From the UHGV virus genome UHGV-0143361: 12,686 nucleotides of DNA; one strand, given 5' to 3'. The stretch is from a virus. The notes beneath the pieces were generated by a model. That model was not told the DNA's origin. It saw only the letters and a list, made by a program, of their open reading frames with translations, and searched no databases. Of this stretch, positions 3,665-12,686 are shown piece after piece; within the stretch, counting starts at the first letter, position 1, and each line of letters starts with the position of its first letter. Made by a program: the position numbers and the translations under genes.

Positions 3665-5394
3665 AGAATTAAGAGAACATCGTCCGGATCAAGAGATGAG
3701 AGGAAATCGTCGGGTTCTTTGAGCATTGCCCGACCGATCGCCATAATCAGTGCAACCGCACCATCGATTTTGTTTTCCGCCTGCTCCTTGACAGGCTTCA
3801 CCACATCATCGTTACCCGGAATGGTTTTGCCGACCACGTTGCCGATACACCAGGTCATGATGGGATTGCCATCATGATGAAAGCGCCCCGATTCAATTGC
3901 CGCTTCCAGCTCTTTCATCGGGTCGGACATGTTGGTGTAGTTCTGAATGATGGTGATGGGGTTCAGGTCTTCATCAGCAAGGTCATGCGACAGCCCGGTC
4001 GCCCCGAAGGGGTCGATGGGTGACTCACTGACCGGGCTGATTTTGTTCGCCGCTTTGGCCTCCTCGAGGATGTAGCGATAATCCACCTCCGCACCAGCGG
4101 TAACAGTCAGAACGCCCATTTCCACCCATTTCTGAAAGCGTTCGGCTGTCCGGCGATCTTCATTTTTCTCGACGCTGTACACCGTGTCATACGGTACCCA
4201 GAAACGCGGGGCCACACTGTAGTAATGCGTTTTACCGTCAATCTCGCGGGTATAAAGTCGCGCCATGCTGTTCATATCCAGCTTACGCGCCAGGTCAAAG
4301 GCCAGAATGCACGGCTGCCCCTCGAACTGCTCAAGGGTCAGTGATTTATCCTCGCAGCTCTGCCAGCTCACCAGGTTGAAATACGCCGAACGCGCCGACA
4401 CCCAGATATTGAGGTGTTTTGTTTTAAAGACGTTTGCCAGACGGGCGTTATTTTTCGCACGCTGTTGCTGACTTAACAAAAACTCACGGTAAACCGACAC
4501 CCCGATATTCGGGTTGGCTTTTTCCAGCACCTGTGGGTTGGTCCAGTCGTCACCTTCGTCAACGGTATAGATGATCCCGAACAGTTCATCGTTGGGTACC
4601 GAACCGTTGAGCATCTCGATAACTTCCCGCCGCTTGTCGTAGCACGGCCCCTCAATGTTGTACCCGGCGGTGGTGATGGCCCACATCAGTGGCTGACGTC
4701 GCGCCCCCATCCCGGTAAGCATCGTGGTATAAAGCGCATCGGTGGCGTGCTCGTGATATTCATCCACCACCGCACAGTGGGGTGATGATCCATCACCGGG
4801 GTTACCGATCAGCGGTTCAAACCGCGCGCCATCCTCCGGACGGTTCATGTTTGAGGCGTTAACCTCAATCCCGAACGCTTCCGTCAGCATGGGTGTGCGT
4901 TTACACATCAGTCGCGCCGGGCGAAAGACTTCCCACGCCTGTTTCTCTGTCGTGGCACCGGAATACACTTCCGCGCCAAACTCGTTATCACAGGCAAAAC
5001 AATACAGGGCGACACCGGCAGAGATTGCCGATTTGCCGTTCTTACGGGGGATTTCGGTATACACCTCCCGGAAGCGGCGCAGCCGGGTACCTTTATTGAC
5101 CCAGCCAAACGCACAGCAGATCACAAAGAGCTGCCACGGCTCCAGCGTGATGGGCATCCGTTTGAATGCCCACTCACCCTTGGTATGCGGCAACAGCTGA
5201 ATAAATTTGGCGGCCCGTTCAGCCAGGTCCTTGTCGAAGCGGTAACGAAACGACTTACTTTTTTCCGCCATCAGGTCATCAAGATGGCGCTGGCAGGCCT
5301 GAATCACAAACTGGCAGGCCACAATCTTTCCCCGCACGACATCACGGGCATACTGATTGGCAGCATTTACGTTGGGGTAAGATTTCCGGCTCAT
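3661..5394 (-). CDS. terL: Terminase large subunit
   Basis: 577 aa with ATG at 5392-5394, lying between terS and portal. Family recognised from the overall sequence (ATPase-like N-terminal half, nuclease-like C-terminal half). Confidence 0.93.
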
Positions 5395-6369: not shown

Positions 6370-6519
6370 TGCATAATCCTCTTGGATGGTTCGCGTGCGA
6401 TACGTGGCATCCTTCTCAGAATCGAATCGCACTCCACTCCGGTTTTGCCATAAACGATCTTTTATGCTTCGCTGGATGTAGTTGATAGTTGTTGAAACTC
6501 AATGAACAGGAGTTCACAA

Positions 6520-6855
6520 ATGAATAGTTATGAATGGGAATGGCTTTTAAACAAAGATGACACCCTATGCTTTTTCCCCGTAGGCCATTCTGTAGAAGGT
6601 AATTACAAAATTCACTTTGAGTTGAGCGGTAGTTGTAACCTTAGAGTCTCAGATGCTGAATGGCATGGTAAACCTGTACTGCTGTTCGAATACTTCGATG
6701 AAGATGATGACCGCCCTGCAATAATCGAAATATTAGAAACAACTACTACAACTGTGGAGGCGATGATCGGGCATCTGAATAGTATCGATAGTATTTACCA
6801 TGAACCGATTTACAAAGCGGTTTACGAGTGGGCCGTAAAGTTTTTCTATCGATGA
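6520..6855 (+). CDS. Hypothetical protein, about 111 aa, acidic (cargo gene 1)
   Basis: ORF 6502..6855 trimmed to the ATG at 6520, which has AGGAG 7 nt upstream. Plus strand, opposite to the phage operons, and visibly AT-rich. Contains an acidic stretch (EYFDEDDDRP) and a TTTT run. No family recognised by eye. Confidence 0.55.
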   Translation: MNSYEWEWLLNKDDTLCFFPVGHSVEGNYKIHFELSGSCNLRVSDAEWHGKPVLLFEYFDEDDDRPAIIEILETTTTTVEAMIGHLNSIDSIYHEPIYKAVYEWAVKFFYR

Positions 6856-6955
6856 TACTTCGTTATCTTGCTGGCATTCACAATACCTTTACATACTAAT
6901 GACATGCCAGCACAATACTGTCACTTACAACCGTTCGGATTACCTAGAGAAAAGT

Positions 6956-7525
6956 ATGATTCAGGATTTACTGATCGAAGCAATTAGTCACGATAGGATG
7001 CATAAAAAGTTAAATGAACTGAATTGCTACTTCTACAATCGCAAACATGAAACTCAAATACGTGATGAGTTAGTTGTTATTCTCAATCAAATCAGCACAC
7101 TAACTGCTTTAAGTGAGCATCCAAAACTCGGTATCGGCGCTGTTGACATATCACTTTATAACCAGTCGATATTAACGTCTGAACATAATGGCAATGTTGC
7201 AACCATCGAGATCAAACACCATTACCCAAAGGATTTACTTTATCGGCAAGTTCAAGAAGACATCATTTCCGATATTTCAAGAGTAATAGTTTCACCAACT
7301 ACACATTTTATCCATATAATCCAGCAAAGAACTATGATTAATACTCCTTCTTTTGGCCAAGTGAAATTCCTTGAACGTGATGCAAGTGATATCAGCACTT
7401 ATGTGCAATGCCTTGAAGAGCTAAGTTCCTTCCCCAGTATCTTTCATAAAAAAAGTATATGTATTGAGGTACTTGGTGAAATTATGTCGACATATACCTT
7501 TAACGTATATTCATTTGACAACTGA
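6956..7525 (+). CDS. Hypothetical protein, about 189 aa, weak PD-(D/E)xK-like pattern (cargo gene 2)
   Basis: ORF 6899..7525; start is either the ATG at 6899 (no SD) or the ATG at 6956 (A/G-rich leader), so the 5' end is uncertain. Co-directional with cargo gene 1 and AT-rich. The pair GAVDIS ... ATIEIKHH gives a D...E-x-K spacing compatible with a PD-(D/E)xK nuclease core; this is inference only. Confidence 0.5.
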   Translation: MIQDLLIEAISHDRMHKKLNELNCYFYNRKHETQIRDELVVILNQISTLTALSEHPKLGIGAVDISLYNQSILTSEHNGNVATIEIKHHYPKDLLYRQVQEDIISDISRVIVSPTTHFIHIIQQRTMINTPSFGQVKFLERDASDISTYVQCLEELSSFPSIFHKKSICIEVLGEIMSTYTFNVYSFDN

Positions 7526-8081: not shown

Positions 8082-8541
8082 TTACCACCCCACCAGCCTC
8101 TTTAAATCGGGCAATCAGGTCACCGATTTTATGTTCATACTGACCGTAACCTGCACCAGGTAACGACGCCCAGATATTGCTGCAACGGTCGATAGCCTGA
8201 CGAATATCACCGCGATCAATCATCGGTAAAGCGCCACGCTCTTTAATCTGCTGCAATGCCACTGCGTCCTGGCTTTTGGGGGAGAAGTCTTTCAAACCAA
8301 GCTGTTTACGGTAAGCATCCCACCAGCGTGAAAGAAGCTGATAACGCCCGGCGGCTGTTGATTTGAGTTTTGGGTTTAGCGTGACAAGTTTGCGAGGGTG
8401 ATCGGAGTAATCAGTGAAGAGTTCACCACCGACAATAACGTCATAACCGTGGTTACGTGTCGGTTGTCGTCCGTTATCCGTTCCTTCTGACCAAGCCACC
8501 ATATCAAGGAAAGCTTTACGCTGGGAATTTAGTACCTGCAT
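8065..8541 (-). CDS. R: Endolysin, lambda R-like lytic transglycosylase
   Basis: 158 aa. From memory it is near-identical over most of its length to phage lambda R (RKAFLDM.AWSEGTDNGRQ.TRNHGYDVIVGGELFTDYSDHPRKLVTLNPKLKST.AGRYQLLSRWWDAYRKQLGLKDFSPKSQDAVALQQIKERGALPMIDRGDIRQAIDRCSNIWASLPGAGYGQ). GGAG SD 7 nt upstream of the ATG at 8539-8541. Confidence 0.95.
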   Translation of the reverse strand: MQVLNSQRKAFLDMVAWSEGTDNGRQPTRNHGYDVIVGGELFTDYSDHPRKLVTLNPKLKSTAAGRYQLLSRWWDAYRKQLGLKDFSPKSQDAVALQQIKERGALPMIDRGDIRQAIDRCSNIWASLPGAGYGQYEHKIGDLIARFKEAGGVVNEVEL

Positions 8542-8544
8542 AAA

Positions 8545-8871
8545 TTACTCCTTAGAGCCACCAAATTTGTTACCGATTACTCGCATTGCAGCCCCACGAA
8601 TAGCATCGACACCGATCAACCCAACACCACCACCAATGGCAACAGAAAGCGATTTAGGCCATCCGACATACTCAAGAGCGGATGCAAAAGTCAGCGTCAG
8701 AGCGCCACAGAGTAGAATTTCGAGCGTTTTTCGCTTCCAGCCACCACCACCGCCAAAATAGGCGATGCGCAAACCAGCCATAACGATCGACATAATCACT
8801 GCACCCAGCGGTGTGTCTCCACGCCACCAGCTCTGGACCAAGTCCAGCCAGGTATTTGGGTTATGAGGCAT
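8545..8871 (-). CDS. Holin (three predicted hydrophobic segments)
   Basis: ORF 8545..8967 trimmed to the ATG at 8869-8871 (MPHNPNTWLD...). The track's GTG start lies inside the upstream terminator hairpin and overlaps the methyltransferase gene. Three hydrophobic stretches and a charged C-terminus, placed immediately upstream of the endolysin. Confidence 0.7.
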   Translation of the reverse strand: MPHNPNTWLDLVQSWWRGDTPLGAVIMSIVMAGLRIAYFGGGGGWKRKTLEILLCGALTLTFASALEYVGWPKSLSVAIGGGVGLIGVDAIRGAAMRVIGNKFGGSKE

Positions 8872-8914
8872 TTCGTCATCTCTCACCTCGCGATATTTGC
8901 GGGTGCTGTGTTGG

Positions 8915-8940
8915 AAATAAAAAGGCCACGCAACGTGGCC
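8915..8940 (-). terminator. Intrinsic terminator between the methyltransferase and holin genes (tR'-like position)
   Basis: Perfect 7-bp stem GGCCACG/CGTGGCC with a 3-nt loop (8924-8940), followed on the minus strand by UUUUUAUUU (8915-8923). Lies between the MTase stop (8948) and the holin ATG (8871). Confidence 0.6.
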
Positions 8941-8947
8941 ACCAGAA

Positions 8948-10000
8948 TTATTTCCCCACCAGTTCACTTACCTCTTTCACCGTCTGATTAAACCGCTCTG
9001 ACTCAAGTTCAACACCTAACGCCCGACGTCCCAGCGCCATTGCTGCTTTTATTGTGGAACCGGATCCCATAAAAAAATCAGCAACCAGATCACCTGGTCG
9101 ACTACTGGCATTGATTATTTGCCGGAGCATATCCGCAGGCTTCTCACACGGATGTTTACCCGGGTAGAACTGAACGGGTTTATGCGTCCAGACGTCGGTA
9201 TAAGGCACGGAAACTGATACGGAGAAATAGCGCCGGAGAGTTTTAAACTCATCCAGCAATTCAGAATATTTGCGATTCAGTGAATCATAAGATGCCACCA
9301 GCTGGTGGTGTGGTTGTTCCAGTTGTTGTTCCTGAAACTTCTCTGCCGCTATACGGGAAAACAGTGCCTGTAACTTCCGATAGTCAGCCTCATTCGGCAA
9401 CTGCCACTGACTGGCACCAAACCAGTGGGAAACCATATTTTTCTTACCTGTGGCTTCGGCAATTTGTTTTGCCGTTATACCCAGTTCGGCACGAGCATCC
9501 CTGAAATACGATATCAGCGGTGCCATTATGTGCTGTTTGAGTTCCCTTTCTTTTGCCGCATAGCCGTCACTTTTGCCGCGATATGGCCCCTGGTAATGTT
9601 CAGCAAACAGAACGCGCTCTGTGGCAGGAAAATATGCGCGCAGACTTTCTTTATTACACCCATTCCAACGTCCGGACGGCTTCGCCCAGATGATATTGTT
9701 AAGCACGTTGAAACGTTCACGCATCATGATCTCAATATCAGATGCCAGGCGATGCCCACAGAACAGGTAAAGGCTTCCGGCAGGTTTCAACACCCGCCAG
9801 AACTGGGCCAGACAGTGGTCCAGCCACTTAAGGTAATCTTCGTCCCCTTTCCACTGATTGTCCCAACCGTTGGGTTTCACCTTGAAGTAAGGCGGATCGG
9901 TAACAATCAGGTCAATGGAATCATCAGGCAGGGACTGAATAAAATGCAGGCAATCAGCGTTGATTAAATCAACACTGTTTATTTTTACAGTATTTTTCAT
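8948..10000 (-). CDS. DNA methyltransferase, beta-class amino-MTase (N6-adenine or N4-cytosine), apparently orphan
   Basis: 350 aa. Motif IV DPPY near the N-terminus (IVTDPPYF) and motif I FxGxG near the C-terminus (DFFMGSGST), the permuted order that defines beta-class amino-methyltransferases. No restriction endonuclease gene is adjacent. Confidence 0.9.
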   Translation of the reverse strand: MKNTVKINSVDLINADCLHFIQSLPDDSIDLIVTDPPYFKVKPNGWDNQWKGDEDYLKWLDHCLAQFWRVLKPAGSLYLFCGHRLASDIEIMMRERFNVLNNIIWAKPSGRWNGCNKESLRAYFPATERVLFAEHYQGPYRGKSDGYAAKERELKQHIMAPLISYFRDARAELGITAKQIAEATGKKNMVSHWFGASQWQLPNEADYRKLQALFSRIAAEKFQEQQLEQPHHQLVASYDSLNRKYSELLDEFKTLRRYFSVSVSVPYTDVWTHKPVQFYPGKHPCEKPADMLRQIINASSRPGDLVADFFMGSGSTIKAAMALGRRALGVELESERFNQTVKEVSELVGK

Positions 10001-10150
10001 GGATCAGTAAGCGTAACTCTGGTAGGCTCACTCTGCTTTTGCGCTAAAGCAGTGGGCCGTGGTTCGCTTGTGACCAGTAGGCATGAGCGAATGGCTGGCA
10101 GGTGCTACCAACACCCACCAGCCGCCCATTTTCACAGCAGGAAACCGCCA

Positions 10151-10354
10151 TTACTGGCAGCGTCTGAATTTATTCCCGTACCCGCCGTTATCCTTCGCCA
10201 GACCCGCCAGAACTAACTGAGTCAGTATTAACTGGCACCGGGCTTCGCTTACTCCGGTAGTTCTCGTCATCATGCGTGGCGTTACCCACTTGTCAGCAGG
10301 TAAGAAATGAAGGACTGCGGCGGCGGTTTCTGTCATATCTTGCTGTTTTAGCAT
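10151..10354 (-). CDS. Small putative winged-helix DNA-binding protein (67-75 aa)
   Basis: ORF 10151..10378; I favour the ATG at 10352-10354, which has an AAGGGA SD, over the track start. Size and the AAVLHFL...TGVSEARCQLILTQLVLAGLA pattern resemble small PapI/FaeA-like wHTH regulators. Family assignment is a recollection, not a search result. Confidence 0.45.
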   Translation of the reverse strand: MLKQQDMTETAAAVLHFLPADKWVTPRMMTRTTGVSEARCQLILTQLVLAGLAKDNGGYGNKFRRCQ

Positions 10355-10476
10355 GTCTTTTTCCCTTCTGGTTAACATGACATACCAATAACTCTTGTCT
10401 AAAAAGCCAGCAAGATAAAAAGTCAGTATTCACGACCACCAGCGTGTTTACTGTGCTGCACCAAGTTTACAGGTAC

Positions 10477-10501
10477 AAAAAAACCGCTCAGCGGCGGGTT
10501 T
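10477..10501. promoter_or_regulatory. Weak hairpin flanked by an A7 run and a T-run in a divergent intergenic region
   Basis: AAAAAAA-CCGC-tca-GCGG-CGGGTTT: a 4-bp GC stem with A7 on one side and T3 on the other. On the minus strand it reads hairpin plus U7, so it could be a weak terminator or attenuator. It sits in the 295-bp gap between the wHTH gene and the 339-aa gene. Confidence 0.25.
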
Positions 10502-10673
10502 AAGTTGTGTGGCGAAGTAACCACTCTTAACACAGTAATCTAGAAAATGCGGACCGCGTTAGTGATTTTTATCTGTTTTTCCATTATTTTTTTGCCACAC
10601 AGCTTAAAACGAAAAATAAAGCAGGCGTTGCCAAACCTCACGGTGACAGTTGGCTTAGAATGAGGACATATTT

Positions 10674-11693
10674 TTGGATAAGTTTGATGAGATTCATGTA
10701 GACATTGAATCTGAGCAGCAAGCCTTCGATTTGCTTGAAAGCTATCTTGATGGTTATGGTTTACCTGACAGTTTAAGTTTCAACGGATGGCCAAACCTTA
10801 CCATCAGATTAACCGGTGAAAAATTCAACAGATCGCTAACACCTTCAGTTATGAAGGGATTTGTTGAAATGCAAGCTCAAATCAACAAATCATATGCCCT
10901 TGCCAAGTACGGTGTCCCTGACGTCCGCAAACTGACCAAAGAAGAACTTGATGCCCTAGAAATAGAAGTTACGGTAGAACAGGGTTCTTCAATAGTAGAA
11001 ATCAACATTGATGGCTTTTTAACCAAACTCACACAGGAACTTGTTGGTAAAATGAACGCAACTGAGATCATGTTTACTGTTCTCGGCGCAGCAGTCATCT
11101 GGGGCGGAGTAACAGTATTTAAACGGTTCTTGGACAACCGTAAAGATATTCGCCTTGCAGAAATTGCTAAGGATGGAGAGAAAGAACATCTCCGGACTAT
11201 GCAGATCATGAGCGAGCAAGAAACTAAACGCCTGCGGGTTATTTCAGAAATGATTGCGGAAAAACCACTTCTCGATAACATGGACCGTATGTCGTATGAC
11301 GCTAAAACCCAAATGGTCAAATCCTTTGTGCGTTCAGATAACGCTCAAATTGATGGCGTTACTATTGATTCTGAAATGGCGAAAGAGTTGGTTACGAATG
11401 CTCGTAGACGTTCATCAGAAATGAGGATTGATGGTATTTACCGAATTGAAGAAGTCAATAATACTGACCCAGAGAGTTTCAAAGTTAAGGTCCGACGCGT
11501 AGATACCGACCAACGTCTAACCTGCGTAGTTCAGGATGTTTTCCTTGATGAATCCGGAAACAAAGAAGCATTGCAGCGAGCTGAGTGGGAAAGAAAGCCT
11601 GTACATTTGAGCATTAACGCAAAACACGTCGATGGTGACATTAAGTCAGCAGTAATTCTCTATGTTCGAGATGTGGAACAAAAGCCCGAGTAA
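10674..11693 (+). CDS. Hypothetical single-pass membrane protein, 339 aa (cargo gene, TTG start)
   Basis: Only in-frame start after the upstream stop is TTG at 10674, with GAGGA 7 nt upstream. One clear TM helix (IMFTVLGAAVIWGGVTVF, about residues 133-150) followed by KRFLDNRKDIR, and a charged, helix-rich C-terminal domain of about 190 aa. Plus strand, AT-rich, convergent with Q. No family recognised. Confidence 0.6.
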   Translation: MDKFDEIHVDIESEQQAFDLLESYLDGYGLPDSLSFNGWPNLTIRLTGEKFNRSLTPSVMKGFVEMQAQINKSYALAKYGVPDVRKLTKEELDALEIEVTVEQGSSIVEINIDGFLTKLTQELVGKMNATEIMFTVLGAAVIWGGVTVFKRFLDNRKDIRLAEIAKDGEKEHLRTMQIMSEQETKRLRVISEMIAEKPLLDNMDRMSYDAKTQMVKSFVRSDNAQIDGVTIDSEMAKELVTNARRRSSEMRIDGIYRIEEVNNTDPESFKVKVRRVDTDQRLTCVVQDVFLDESGNKEALQRAEWERKPVHLSINAKHVDGDIKSAVILYVRDVEQKPE

Positions 11694-11699
11694 TCGGGC
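11677..11699 (-). terminator. Intrinsic terminator downstream of Q, possibly bidirectional (shared with the convergent 339-aa gene)
   Basis: 6-bp stem GCCCGA/TCGGGC with a 4-nt loop (11684-11699); the TAA stop of the 339-aa gene lies in the loop. On the minus strand the hairpin is followed by UUUUGUU (11677-11683); on the plus strand it is followed by a U-rich UUCAAUAAUC. Confidence 0.5.
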
Positions 11700-11707
11700 T
11701 TCAATAA

Positions 11708-12085
11708 TCAATCTTTAATTTCGGGGTCCATCTCTAGACTAATTTCCAGCATCGATAGGCAGCCATCAATAAACCCCTCAGCCATCTGTATCTCAATGCG
11801 TATTAGTTTCTCATCCTTTTTACGAGCCTTGGCGAGCTTTCTTTTAGAGATACCGTATAGGTAATGGGCAACAAGAAGCGAATGTTCGTCCGGCCTTTTT
11901 TGCCTTAGACGAGCAAGACAACCTTCAATAATTAATGCATCACTATCTGAACATGCCTGACGTGTTTTGCTTGTATAGGGAAGAAGCCCTTTAAACCCAG
12001 CAGCTATAGGAGAATAGTCTACTCCTGAACTATCACTCGCCGCCCATGCTCCCCAACGATCCAGAACCATTTGAATATCACGCAT
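11708..12085 (-). CDS. Q: Late-gene antiterminator Q (Phage_antitermQ family, QuuQ/QuuD-like)
   Basis: ORF 11708..12100 trimmed to the ATG at 12083-12085 (MRDIQMVLDRWGAWAA...), with a GGAGA SD 7 nt upstream. The N-terminus MRDIQMVL.RWGAWAA...IAAGFKGL matches my recollection of E. coli prophage Q homologues; about 125 aa. Confidence 0.85.
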   Translation of the reverse strand: MRDIQMVLDRWGAWAASDSSGVDYSPIAAGFKGLLPYTSKTRQACSDSDALIIEGCLARLRQKRPDEHSLLVAHYLYGISKRKLAKARKKDEKLIRIEIQMAEGFIDGCLSMLEISLEMDPEIKD

Positions 12086-12102
12086 CAACTTTCTCCACAA
12101 AA

Positions 12103-12230
12103 TCAGGCCAGCACGCCAATTGCCAGCGCACGATCGATAAAACGAAATATCAGCTCCAGCTGAGAGCCATACTTTTCTTCAAATACCACGGTATCCGCAT
12201 GCAGCTCGTCGTGATGCTTTCTGCACAAAG
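12103..12230 (-). pseudogene. 3' fragment of a phage gene upstream of Q, truncated at the junction
   Basis: A minus-strand frame ends ...TVVFEEKYGSQLELIFRFIDRALAIGVLA* at 12103-12105, 17 nt before the Q start, in operon-like spacing with E. coli-like codons (CTG, CGT, GCG). It has no start because the sequence upstream of about 12230 is antisense to rimO. Confidence 0.3.
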
Positions 12231-12231
12231 G

Positions 12232-12636
12232 CAGCACGAAGAGGTCATGCGCTTTGTAGATGAGATGGAGTTCGAGCGTCTTGGCGTATTTACCTACTCA
12301 GCAGAGGAAGATACTCCGGCGGCAGATTTCCCGGATCAGATCCCGGAGGAGGTGAAGGAGGAGCGCCGCGACGAGATCATGGAGCTCCAGCAGGAAATTG
12401 CCTTTGAAAAGTCCGAATCCATGGTAGGACGAGTTCTGGATGTTATGATCGAGGGCAAGGTGGCTGACGAAGCTGCTTATGTGGGAAGAACCTACATGGA
12501 TGCCCCGAATGTAGATGGATATATCTTTGTTAACAGTGGTGAACTCTTTATGTCCGGTGATTTTGTCCGGGTGAAGGTCACTGGTTCCAATGACTATGAT
12601 CTGATCGGGGAGGTATACGATGAATCTGCCGAATAA
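12232..12636 (+). pseudogene. rimO: rimO (ribosomal protein S12 methylthiotransferase) 3' fragment with TRAM domain, 5'-truncated
   Basis: The C-terminal part of ORF 12046..12636 reads ...FERLGVFTYSAEEDTPAADFPDQIPEEVKEERRDEIMELQQEIAFEK...GRTYMDAPNVDGYIFVN...VRVKVTG..YDLIGEV, matching the RimO/MiaB C-terminus. The conserved GFPGET radical-SAM segment expected just upstream is absent in all frames. Codons (GAG, AAG, ATC, CTC) differ from the phage genes. Confidence 0.7.
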
Positions 12637-12686
12637 ACTGACCGTGCTGCGGGTGATCATGATCCCGTTTTTTGTAGCTGCACTTC
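12620..12686 (+). CDS. pgsA: CDP-diacylglycerol--glycerol-3-phosphate 3-phosphatidyltransferase (PgsA), 5' partial, runs off the window
   Basis: ATG at 12620 with a strong GGGGAGG SD 6 nt upstream, overlapping the rimO stop. Reads MNLPNKLTVLRVIMIPFFVAAL, a PgsA-like N-terminus. The rimO-pgsA adjacency is typical of Firmicutes. Confidence 0.6.
   Translation, partial: MNLPNKLTVLRVIMIPFFVAAL

Follow-up and report, generated by a model that had tools for sequence, protein, structure and literature searches.

In the E. coli prophage of UHGV virus genome UHGV-0143361, the stop codon of the antiterminator gene Q lies 2.84 kb from the start of the holin gene, which raises the question of where the late promoter pR' is located and how Q could control the lysis genes from there. 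We analyzed the whole 12,686-nt stretch of this DNA (referred to here as the window). An earlier note on it had listed Q, a hairpin behind Q, an antisense cargo gene, a winged-helix gene, a methyltransferase gene, and a terminator before the holin; all of these are real and lie at or near the positions that it assigned to them (Table 1). The reading that we favor, with a probability of roughly 0.8, is that the prophage carries a standard Q-dependent late switch of the QuuD/Q933 type, in which the insertion of a low-GC cassette of 1.14 kb has separated the last codons of Q from pR'.

Table 1. Predicted features of the late-control region, in window coordinates
Feature	Position	Strand	Basis and remarks
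Lambda-family holin, first lysis gene of the late operon	8545-8871 (ATG 8871)	minus	PF05106, E 4.5e-25
Second intrinsic terminator	8915-8940 (stem 8940-8924, U-run to 8915)	minus	Terminator scan
DNA methyltransferase, N6/N4 beta class (SfV orf48 homologue)	8948-10000	minus	PF01555, phrog_67
Structured spacer, 150 nt	10001-10150	minus	Conserved; between winged-helix gene and methyltransferase
Small putative winged-helix gene (SfV orf47 homologue)	10151-10378	minus	phrog_331
tR'	10477-10501 (+25 to +49)	minus	Terminator scan; short GC stem and U7
Invariant initial transcribed block AGTGGTTACTTCGCCACACA	10506-10525 (+1 to +20)	minus	Conservation
Putative late promoter pR'	about 10565-10525	minus	Homology; -10 hexamer TACTGT at 10537-10532
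Palindrome GCGGTCCGC	10549-10557 (-32 to -24)	minus	Candidate Q-binding element (QBE/qut)
Inserted cargo cassette	10584-11726	plus	1143 bp, GC about 0.42, one gene
Cargo ORF	10674-11693	plus	339 aa, phrog_6191
Hairpin and U-run after Q	stem 11702-11681, UUUUGUU to 11675	minus	Folding, 9 bp
Antiterminator Q gene	11708-12088 (ORF reaches 12100)	minus	PF06530, E 2e-52

Q is a member of the QuuD/Q933 family. Its product comprises 126 amino acids from the ATG, carries the RefSeq label "antiterminator Q family protein," and is 71 to 90% identical to the Q proteins of Stx2a phages and phage cdtI. A Q21-type Q was also considered and rejected: the match to the solved Q21 structure (6P18, 6JNX) is distant (E value of 7e-4 over 79 residues), and the conserved element described below contains no direct repeat. 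Among Q genes of the same subtype, homology ends 17 nt upstream of the stop codon, and the homology to Q of phage cdtI is over at 11727, ahead of the stop, so that nothing is conserved at the end of Q. The final ∼6 codons and the stop codon derive from the inserted cassette.

This cassette, which looks foreign, extends from the last original codon of Q on one side to position -59 of pR' on the other, and its GC content of 0.42 compares with about 0.50 in the flanks. L076 contains an empty site, where homology ends at 11727 and restarts at 10583, the cassette replacing 4 bp. The same 1150-nt gap between Q and the pR' motif is found in 11 IMG/VR contigs. Of the traits expected of a moron (foreign composition, absence from close relatives, and a terminator and a promoter of its own), the cassette has low GC, the empty site in L076, and a hairpin that travels with the gene; a convincing promoter of its own was not found by a consensus scan of the plus strand upstream of the ribosome-binding site, and the sole plus-strand match near the cargo gene (10643 to 10672) would start transcription past the start codon. 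The cargo ORF gave no Pfam or PADLOC match; in Salmonella, a homologue is located after cI, in a rexAB-like position. The cassette, with its cargo gene and hairpin, lies upstream of pR', behind the last codons of Q, so that the late transcript does not include the cargo gene, which the lysogen probably expresses independently.

The hairpin adjoining Q likewise belongs to the cargo cassette. It begins 5 nt past the Q stop codon, overlaps the cargo stop codon, and is stable (dG of -13.8 kcal/mol, z score of -4.1, with 0 of 200 shuffles equally stable). The same stem forms on the plus strand, but just two U residues follow it there. In Enterobacter prophages, the same hairpin is present 3' of the cargo gene, with the U-run on the cargo-sense side. 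Five other examples of cassettes were folded, and in three of them a hairpin also adjoins Q. Q would be made from the early rightward transcript, and such Q-sense transcripts would stop at the hairpin and U-run of the cassette (11702 to 11675).

By homology, pR' can be placed at about 10565 to 10525, with transcription predicted to start near 10525. The region from 10380 to 10583 is homologous to the DNA right after the Q stop codon in cargo-free phages with the same Q subtype; over 10380 to 10579, it matches the DNA behind Q of Stx2a phages 1720a-02, Stx2_14040, and ASU11 and of PhiR5_1, whose Q proteins are 71 to 72% identical to that of the prophage, at 77 to 80%. The pR' leader of 933W/Sp5 is homologous to positions -4 to +50 at 82%, first hairpin included. 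In Sp5/933W, the start site of pR' was mapped by dRNA-seq, and the promoter was shown experimentally to be constitutive; the start lies 258 nt upstream of the 3' end of tR', and an RNase E site (GU|AUU) is located at +173 (PMC7547250). Two checks, the 258-nt distance and the RNase E site at +173 (PMC7547250), fix the 933W start at L012:3701, and BLAST pairs this position, nucleotide 1 of StxS-L, with window position 10525. On the homologous block, the 933W record marks pR' (with TATCAT as the -10), qut (+8 to +15), and a terminator. The predicted start site in the prophage is the A at 10525, separated from the -10 hexamer by a 6-nt discriminator.

Judged by consensus rules, this pR' is poor: the -10 matches at three of six positions, neither a good -35 nor a TGn is present, and an A-rich tract lies upstream. 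A consensus sigma-70 scan of the minus strand returned nothing at 10500 to 10600 or in the 3' end of Q, in agreement with the earlier note, whose author had seen no convincing promoter by eye. Across the window, promoter-like sites were not enriched (11 found versus 16.1 ± 3.3 expected), and terminator-like sites were (21 versus 12.4 ± 3.3). Of the two places suggested for a displaced late promoter, 10379 to 10673 is borne out by the homology to pR', and with pR' there the methyltransferase falls within the late transcript; 10001 to 10150 is instead a folded spacer in which the consensus scan found no promoter-like match.

The promoter motif occurs in 120 IMG/VR contigs, which are redundant, so that this and all other contig counts do not represent independent events; a Q gene of this subtype is found upstream wherever the upstream DNA suffices. 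The gap from the Q stop codon to the motif is 1 to 18 nt in about 80 of the 120 contigs and 0.9 to 1.6 kb in 35, and every long gap contains low-GC antisense genes. In the prophage, the pR' block is located 1.15 kb from the Q stop codon, not directly downstream of Q, because the cassette at 10584 to 11726 intervenes. Positions A2 and T6 of the -10, which the search pattern left unconstrained, are invariant in nine different hexamers.

The GCGGTCCGC palindrome is present in all 120 pattern matches, and the Q subtype agrees wherever the upstream DNA suffices for the comparison. Promoter type is linked to Q subtype: the dyad class follows the Q cluster (17 clusters, six dyad classes, and no conflicts), and Sodalis, an independent case, agrees with this pairing. 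Going by this correlation, the palindrome is a likely candidate for the binding site of this Q subtype. All six dyad classes, as well as 933W, DLP12, Enterobacter, and Sodalis, retain the block that begins at the start site, AGTGGTTACTTCGCCACACA, and its first part (+1 to +13) is common to all dyad classes. This block presumably provides the sigma-dependent pause at which Q loads; within +1 to +20, no hexamer could be clearly recognized as the -10-like element of the pause.

The SfV and Ayreon records both mark a terminator at the position of tR'. The tR' hairpin has a dG of -6.3 kcal/mol in the prophage, in comparison to -11.7 to -16.5 kcal/mol in most relatives, and is weak because one G was lost; the stems of the relatives differ in sequence and retain pairing. 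This third and weaker minus-strand terminator had been missed earlier and lies inside what had been described as a divergent intergenic region. The second terminator has a 7-bp GC stem, UUUUUAUUU (dG of -12.5 kcal/mol, z score of -2.4), and is located 45 nt upstream of the start of the holin gene (327 nt; "phage holin, lambda family" in RefSeq). A terminator is annotated at its place in the SfV and Ayreon records as well. This strong terminator guards the lysis and structural genes, and neither its stability nor that of the hairpin behind Q, both of which the earlier note wanted checked, is negligible.

The leader region of the late operon includes the winged-helix gene and the methyltransferase gene. 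The RefSeq start of the former, at 10354, yields a protein of 67 amino acids. Its AlphaFold2 model (pLDDT of 84) has an H1-H2-H3-beta-wing topology, Foldseek matched it to the winged-helix domains of Zalpha, IclR, TrmB, and DprA (TM scores of 0.6 to 0.77, with E values of just 2e-3 to 4e-2), and some homologues are named TrmB family or contain PF17782. On the strength of the model, the product is predicted to be a winged helix-turn-helix protein. The spacer behind this gene folds strongly (dG of -63.9 kcal/mol, z score of -2.8), and in relatives its long hairpin retains pairing because the changes affect one side only and give wobble pairs. The methyltransferase matches PF01555 over its full length (profile positions 1 to 220 of 221, E value of 4.8e-42) and the PADLOC profile MTase_II with an E value of 3e-151.

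For the working of the switch, we infer that pR' is active in the prophage, that Q binds to the palindrome, and that tR' leaks. RNA polymerase from pR' would pause in the +1 to +20 block, and Q would load there. Without Q, transcripts from pR' would end at the weak tR', and those leaking through would end at 8940 to 8915, leaving the lysis and head genes silent. With Q, the polymerase would read past both terminators into the genes for holin, endolysin, and Rz and the structural genes.

How much tR' contributes to this control may be debated. With pR' at 10565 to 10525, tR' might be too weak to matter, in which case the winged-helix protein and the methyltransferase would be constitutive in the lysogen and 8940 to 8915 would be the sole real Q gate. 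The low stability of the prophage hairpin relative to its counterparts points in this direction, as do the strength and conservation of the second terminator and the 258-nt RNA of lysogenic Sp5/933W, which passes a far stronger homologous first hairpin (PMC7547250). However, the stem is followed by a perfect U7, and even a short stem can cause termination; the stems of relatives vary in sequence yet pair, so that the hairpin is apparently selected; and the published RNA-seq would have missed very short leader RNAs. We regard a negligible tR' as possible, with odds well short of even.

A separate, Q-independent promoter for the methyltransferase, in the spacer or inside the winged-helix gene, is improbable. 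For a junction within an operon, the spacer is long, and one 9/12 promoter-like match lies inside the winged-helix gene (10296 to 10269), but this match is at chance level (11 sites found in the window against 16 expected), the spacer has a conserved, strong RNA fold and no promoter-like site, and the small gene and the methyltransferase gene always occur together behind pR'/tR'. Less probable still, and very unlikely in our view, is the proposal of the earlier note that pR' is contained in the 3' end of Q or follows it immediately, so that Q-modified polymerase would read through the hairpin and the antisense cargo gene and then 10379 to 10673 to reach the late genes. It would bring the prophage into line with lambda and the cargo-free relatives, in which pR' directly follows Q, and a hairpin with a U-run right behind Q is what is expected of tR'. 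Against it, the pR' block that is conserved with this Q subtype lies 1.15 kb away, at 10565 to 10506; the homology breaks 17 nt before the Q stop codon (at 11727 for cdtI); the minus strand at 11700 to 11800 contains no promoter-like site; and the terminator after Q is stable and, in other genera, travels with the cargo gene.

The overall plan of the region is common to SfV, cdtI, mEp460, Stx2a phages, and K-12 DLP12, and the layout is therefore not the unusual one that it had been taken for. SfV (NC_003444), with 92.6% DNA identity from 10500 to the lysis genes, has the same Q-to-holin order (Q, terminator, orf47, orf48 methyltransferase, terminator, S) with both terminators annotated at the same places, but its Q, of 250 amino acids, is unrelated, a promoter region of its own precedes the shared tR', and no cargo lies between Q and the promoter. 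The same order is seen in cdtI, mEp460, Ayreon, and Stx2a phages. Phages cdtI (NC_009514) and mEp460_4F5 carry the same Q subtype (90% identical in cdtI and, more distantly, 58% in 4F5), followed by an antisense cassette, the same pR' block, the winged-helix gene, the methyltransferase, and the holin; their cassettes are different ones, that of cdtI having two genes and that of 4F5 a single unrelated gene. K-12 DLP12 also has antisense cargo between Q and pR' (quuD, antisense nmpC [porin], pR' core/tR', and essD [holin]), with the pR' core and tR' just upstream of the holin. Its cargo is different and broken by IS5, its palindrome is ACGTACGT, and neither a winged-helix gene nor a methyltransferase separates tR' from the holin.

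The pR'-tR' leader of 933W and Sakai Sp5, the source of StxS, goes with the same Q family (PF06530), but its palindrome, ACGATCGT, is paired with a different Q subtype, and tRNAs and stx take the place of the winged-helix gene and the methyltransferase. StxS derives from the 258-nt pR'-tR' transcript, the 3' 74 nt of which are an Hfq-binding small RNA (PMC7547250); the presence of StxS in the window was rejected, since only nucleotides 1 to 54 of StxS-L match (10525 to 10472) and the 3' part is missing. With lambda and Q21, the prophage shares the plan of a constitutive promoter, promoter-proximal Q loading, a terminator, and late genes. The lambda Q site is located between -35 and -10 (PMC6266700), as is the candidate site of the prophage; the lambda Q is unrelated in sequence, and the 1.15 kb between Q and pR' sets the prophage apart. 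The Q21 site consists of two 8-bp subsites in direct repeat, in contrast to the 9-bp palindrome that is the candidate here. Phages with an SfV-type Q share the DNA of the window just from 10500 downstream, indicating that Q and pR' move together as one module, and in Enterobacter prophages the same unit of Q, cargo, and pR' is joined to different terminators and holins.

The window covers the late region of a lambdoid prophage from E. coli that is of the SfV/P27/cdtI kind and encodes its late genes on the minus strand. The features that the earlier note had listed from the sequence alone, namely, the antiterminator gene Q (QuuD/Q933 family), the hairpins, the antisense cargo gene, a winged-helix gene, a methyltransferase gene, and a gap of 2.8 kb between Q and the holin gene (2.84 kb from the Q stop codon to the holin ATG), were all found. 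The layout was regarded there as unusual, but it is a common arrangement that has already been sequenced and partly annotated (SfV, Ayreon, cdtI, mEp460, and DLP12). In a megablast search against phage records, the module of terminator, small gene, methyltransferase gene, terminator, and holin gene recurred in SfV, mEp460, Ayreon, cdtI, vB_EcoM-720R4, and others, and both terminators are annotated in the SfV and Ayreon records. The segment from 10400 to 12250 is 99.9 to 100% identical in the records listed, and 80 of 5,426 complete E. coli genomes match at least 80% of it. The small gene encodes a winged-helix protein (H1-H2-H3 and a beta wing in the AlphaFold2 model, pLDDT 84), with Foldseek matches to Zalpha, IclR, TrmB, and DprA winged-helix domains (TM 0.6 to 0.77); some of its homologues are named TrmB family or have PF17782. 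At the right end of the window, the match to E. coli ECONIH1 ends at 12255, and 12256-12686 is foreign: the DUF968 gene is expected to run about 850 nt farther, and a plus-strand ORF with TRAM_2 (RimO-like C terminus) starts instead. Apparently, the assembly has a chimeric join here, or the window was spliced.

Features of the late region in order of late transcription
Feature	Position	Strand	Remarks
DUF968 gene, end portion			first in transcription order, ahead of Q
Q	11708-12088	minus	PF06530, E 2e-52
Hairpin behind Q	stem 11702-11681, then UUUUGUU	minus	dG -13.8 kcal/mol, z -4.1
Cargo ORF	10674-11693	plus	339 aa
Palindrome	10549-10557		-32 to -24 of pR'; homologous position in L012 (933W), L254 (DLP12), L321, and many IMG/VR loci
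Predicted pR' -10 hexamer, TACTGT	10537-10532	minus	followed by 6-nt discriminator
Predicted pR' start site	~10525	minus	terminator at +25 to +49
Third terminator-like site (tR')	10501-10477	minus	terminator scan
Winged-helix gene	10151-10354/10378	minus	67-75 aa
DNA methyltransferase gene	8948-10000	minus	PF01555
Second terminator	stem 8940-8924, then UUUUUAUUU	minus	dG -12.5 kcal/mol, z -2.4
Lambda-family holin gene	8545-8871	minus	endolysin, Rz/Rz1 next
Second low-GC island	6502-7525	plus	past Rz/Rz1; then HNH, terminase, portal, protease, and capsid genes

The extent of homology to known phages differs with the Q type. In phages with an SfV-type Q of 250 amino acids, it reaches from the lysis genes to position 10500 and no farther, whereas in cdtI and mEp460_4F5, which have the same small Q as the window, it extends to about 10570, indicating that about 70 bp upstream of the tR' hairpin travel with the Q type. 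A sensitive search with 10380-10673 showed that about 200 bp, starting within the last codons of Q, are shared with the Stx2a phages 1720a-02, Stx2_14040, and ASU11 and with PhiR5_1 (Q 71 to 72% identical). In the three Stx2a phages, Q is followed by 182 nt, the small gene, the methyltransferase gene, and then, where intact, tRNA genes and stx2; PhiR5_1 has Q and the small gene and lacks the methyltransferase gene. Read downstream, the aligned block has an A-rich tract and CGCGGTCCGCA, then some 10 variable bases and a hexamer TAnnnT, and last GT, TAAGAGTGGTTACTTCGCCACACA, and a GC hairpin with a U7 run. The same core, from TAAGAG through the hairpin, is present in 933W, where the record annotates it as pR' (-35 TTTACG, -10 TATCAT) with a "qut" site and a terminator. 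The Sp5/933W pR' start has been mapped by dRNA-seq to a position 258 nt before the 3' end of tR' (Sy et al., PMC7547250), and the transcript contains an RNase E site (GU|AUU) at +173 (PMC7547250). Both measures agree on the A of TAAG-A-G (L012:3701) as the 933W start, which aligns in BLAST with window position 10525, in an alignment that runs to 10472 with 82% identity.

The earlier note had placed the late promoter either within the 3' end of Q or in a displaced position, at 10379-10673 or 10001-10150; the homology to the 933W pR' supports displacement to 10379-10673, and the note's interpretation was half right. The two terminators that it named are present and are predicted to be stable on folding, and it missed the third minus-strand site. 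Its failure to see a sigma-70 promoter was shared by our sigma-70 consensus scan, which did not flag pR' and found no enrichment of promoter-like sites; the reason is that pR' has neither a good -35 element nor a TGn motif. The scan is usable against rival promoter positions and not as confirmation of pR'. Across 45 sequence variants, the pR' hexamer takes nine forms (CAGTAT, TACTGT, TAATCT, TAACGT, TATTAT, TATCAT, TAACTT, TAACCT, and TAGCTT), all with A as the second and T as the sixth base, two bases that the search pattern left free. A literature search on the SfV late promoter gave no useful description. Homology to StxS was rejected, as only the first 54 nt are common to the window.

Scanning IMG/VR with the promoter motif yielded 120 contigs, in which the nearest upstream Q, wherever upstream DNA sufficed, was of the window subtype, with no case of an SfV- or 933W-type Q. 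The Q stop codon and the motif were 1, 12, or 18 nt apart in about 80 contigs and 902, 1,150, 1,485 to 1,489, or 1,598 to 1,642 nt apart in 35, with the 1,150-nt gap (11 contigs) defining the window class and the 1,485- to 1,489-nt gap the cdtI class; 3 of the 5 contigs without a Q match carry cassette genes upstream. All long gaps have a GC content of 0.34 to 0.43 and genes on the strand opposite Q. Comparison with the empty site of a cargo-free relative (L076; Q 93% identical) defines the cassette as window 11726-10584, with 4 bp replaced; at 10583, part of the former Q end (TGG-TAA) is left. Thus, the last six codons of Q, its stop codon, and the adjacent hairpin are cassette DNA. This hairpin is also present behind a homologous cargo gene in Enterobacter prophages, where the Q-cargo-pR' unit is joined to other terminators and holins, and three of five other cassette examples that were folded end in a hairpin adjoining Q. 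In DLP12 of K-12, the pR' core (TTTACGTACGTAAAAAATTGGTTATGCTGTTAAGAGTGGTTAC, then the hairpin) is located between nmpC and essD, so that antisense cargo separates quuD from its promoter there, too. Altogether, about 30% of the contigs sampled have a low-GC cassette at the Q-pR' junction (loci L017-L131, L254 [DLP12], and L259-L261). These cassettes, of at least six unrelated kinds, are all antisense to Q; examples are the cargo gene of the window, nmpC in DLP12, two genes in cdtI, and multigene cassettes in L036 and L054.

For the promoter itself, the shared core served for a second scan, whose matches were combined with those of the first and with the window, 933W, DLP12, and mEp460_4F5. The resulting set comprised 189 loci, and their 86 distinct Q proteins formed 17 clusters at an identity of 80%. 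Six classes of the element at -32 to -24 can be distinguished: GCGGTCCGC; ACG(A/T)(T/A)CGT; GCG(T/C)ACGC; TCGTTACGA; TGTCATGACA; and TGGAATTCCA / TGTAATTACA. Each Q cluster has at most one palindrome class, with no conflict among the 17, and clusters of one class have the same sequence in the predicted recognition region. A scan of genome contigs with the 14-mer TAAGAGTGGTTACT gave almost exclusively chance matches in unrelated phyla, the only real one being in Sodalis; the Q of the Sodalis prophage, 56% identical to that of 1720a-02, has a TTCGTTACGAA element and shares the SEGxIRQ motif with the E. coli cluster having the same element. The block from +1 to +13 is common to all six classes. 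This pattern fits a Q-specific site between -35 and -10, followed by a common element that may interact with polymerase; the qut site of Stx phages likewise lies between -35 and -10, as in lambda (PMC6266700). The palindrome classes are therefore a candidate recognition code for QuuD/Q933-type Q proteins. The winged-helix protein was rejected as a binder of the palindrome, since 933W, DLP12, and Enterobacter prophages have the palindrome and no such gene downstream.

Follow-up is most worthwhile for the possible insertion hot spot and for the palindrome classes. We assign a probability of roughly 0.4 to the reading that the junction is a dedicated insertion hot spot of the QuuD/Q933 type and that the palindrome is a code pairing Q subtype with promoter. 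If so, the lysogen could express junction cargo that stays out of the late transcript, and the recurrent site would be a potential handle for finding lysogen-expressed cargo genes. The code would imply dimeric, symmetric binding of Q to a 9- to 10-bp palindrome, unlike Q21, which has a direct-repeat site and to which the window Q is only distantly related, and exchange of GCGGTCCGC for ACGATCGT should shift the response from the window Q to Q933. The classes could also predict Q/late-operon pairing, e.g., cross-activation of coresident Stx and non-Stx prophages.

How the region might work depends in part on tR'. In the window, its hairpin has lost one G and has a folding energy of -6.3 kcal/mol, versus -11.7 to -16.5 kcal/mol in most relatives. 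The homologous first hairpin of Sp5/933W is much stronger and is contained in the 258-nt lysogenic RNA, so polymerase gets past it at least sometimes. The weak window hairpin and this read-through speak for a leaky tR', in which case the lysogen would produce some winged-helix protein and methyltransferase and the second terminator would be the real gate, an explanation that we consider possible but on balance improbable. In the mechanism that we propose, with tR' as the stop, Q would be translated from the early rightward transcript, which the cassette hairpin would end behind Q. pR' would fire, presumably constitutively as in Sp5 (PMC7547250), and Q would bind near the promoter and load onto polymerase that has paused within the invariant block from +1 to +20. 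Without Q, transcription would stop at tR' and leaked transcripts at the strong terminator at 8940-8915; with Q, polymerase would read past both into the lysis and structural genes. We infer pR' activity in the window prophage, the pause, and Q binding from sequence comparison. Most likely, the late-operon leader consists of the structured spacer and the two genes that flank it, for the winged-helix protein and the methyltransferase, as these genes form the leader in SfV and Stx2a phages, and the cargo gene lies outside the late transcript, which corrects the reading of the region. The precise position of pR' is thereby predicted for this Q subtype, which numerous E. coli prophages have, high-toxin Stx2a phages among them.

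Homologues of the cargo protein, all unnamed, occur in Enterobacterales, Pseudomonas, Acinetobacter, and Burkholderiales. The protein and those of the cdtI and 4F5 cassettes had no Pfam or PADLOC match, and in PHROGs they matched unknown-function families only. In the AlphaFold2 model (pLDDT 83), an N-terminal alpha/beta part is followed by long helices in the center, one of them hydrophobic, and by a C-terminal beta barrel; as the barrel had only weak, OB-fold-like matches, no function was assigned. In Salmonella (L255-L258, gene at 4001-4999), a homologue with 62% identity lies directly behind cI on the same strand, in the position that rexAB occupies in lambda. This location points to expression in the lysogen and hints at a role in exclusion or defense, as a lead only. 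The second low-GC island (GC 0.36 to 0.39) is also antisense within the late operon, where it separates Rz/Rz1 from the HNH gene, and has two plus-strand ORFs, phrog_14397 and phrog_12494, of unknown function.

The 150-nt spacer between the winged-helix and methyltransferase genes (10001-10150, minus strand) folds with a dG of -63.9 kcal/mol (z -2.8) and contains a hairpin of 12 to 14 bp (GGCUGGUGGGUG / CACCxxCCAGCC) that remains paired in relatives, where U-A pairs have become U-G and G-C pairs G-U. The late leader may have a structured RNA element here. An Rfam search of 8400-12686 at a permissive threshold found no known RNA family over the leader or spacer; its sole match, fstAT on the second terminator, was at chance level (E 0.8). 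A terminator-like hairpin with a U7 run at 9082-9100 (minus strand; dG -11.2, z -3.0), inside the methyltransferase coding region, is probably coincidental, as its U run codes for the two Phe residues of the conserved motif DFFMGSGS. At 11675-11702, the hairpin stem is followed by only two U residues on the plus (cargo-sense) strand, and in Enterobacter the U run is on the cargo-sense side. Speculatively, cargo transcripts could continue antisense into Q, akin to the paQ antisense RNA of lambda.
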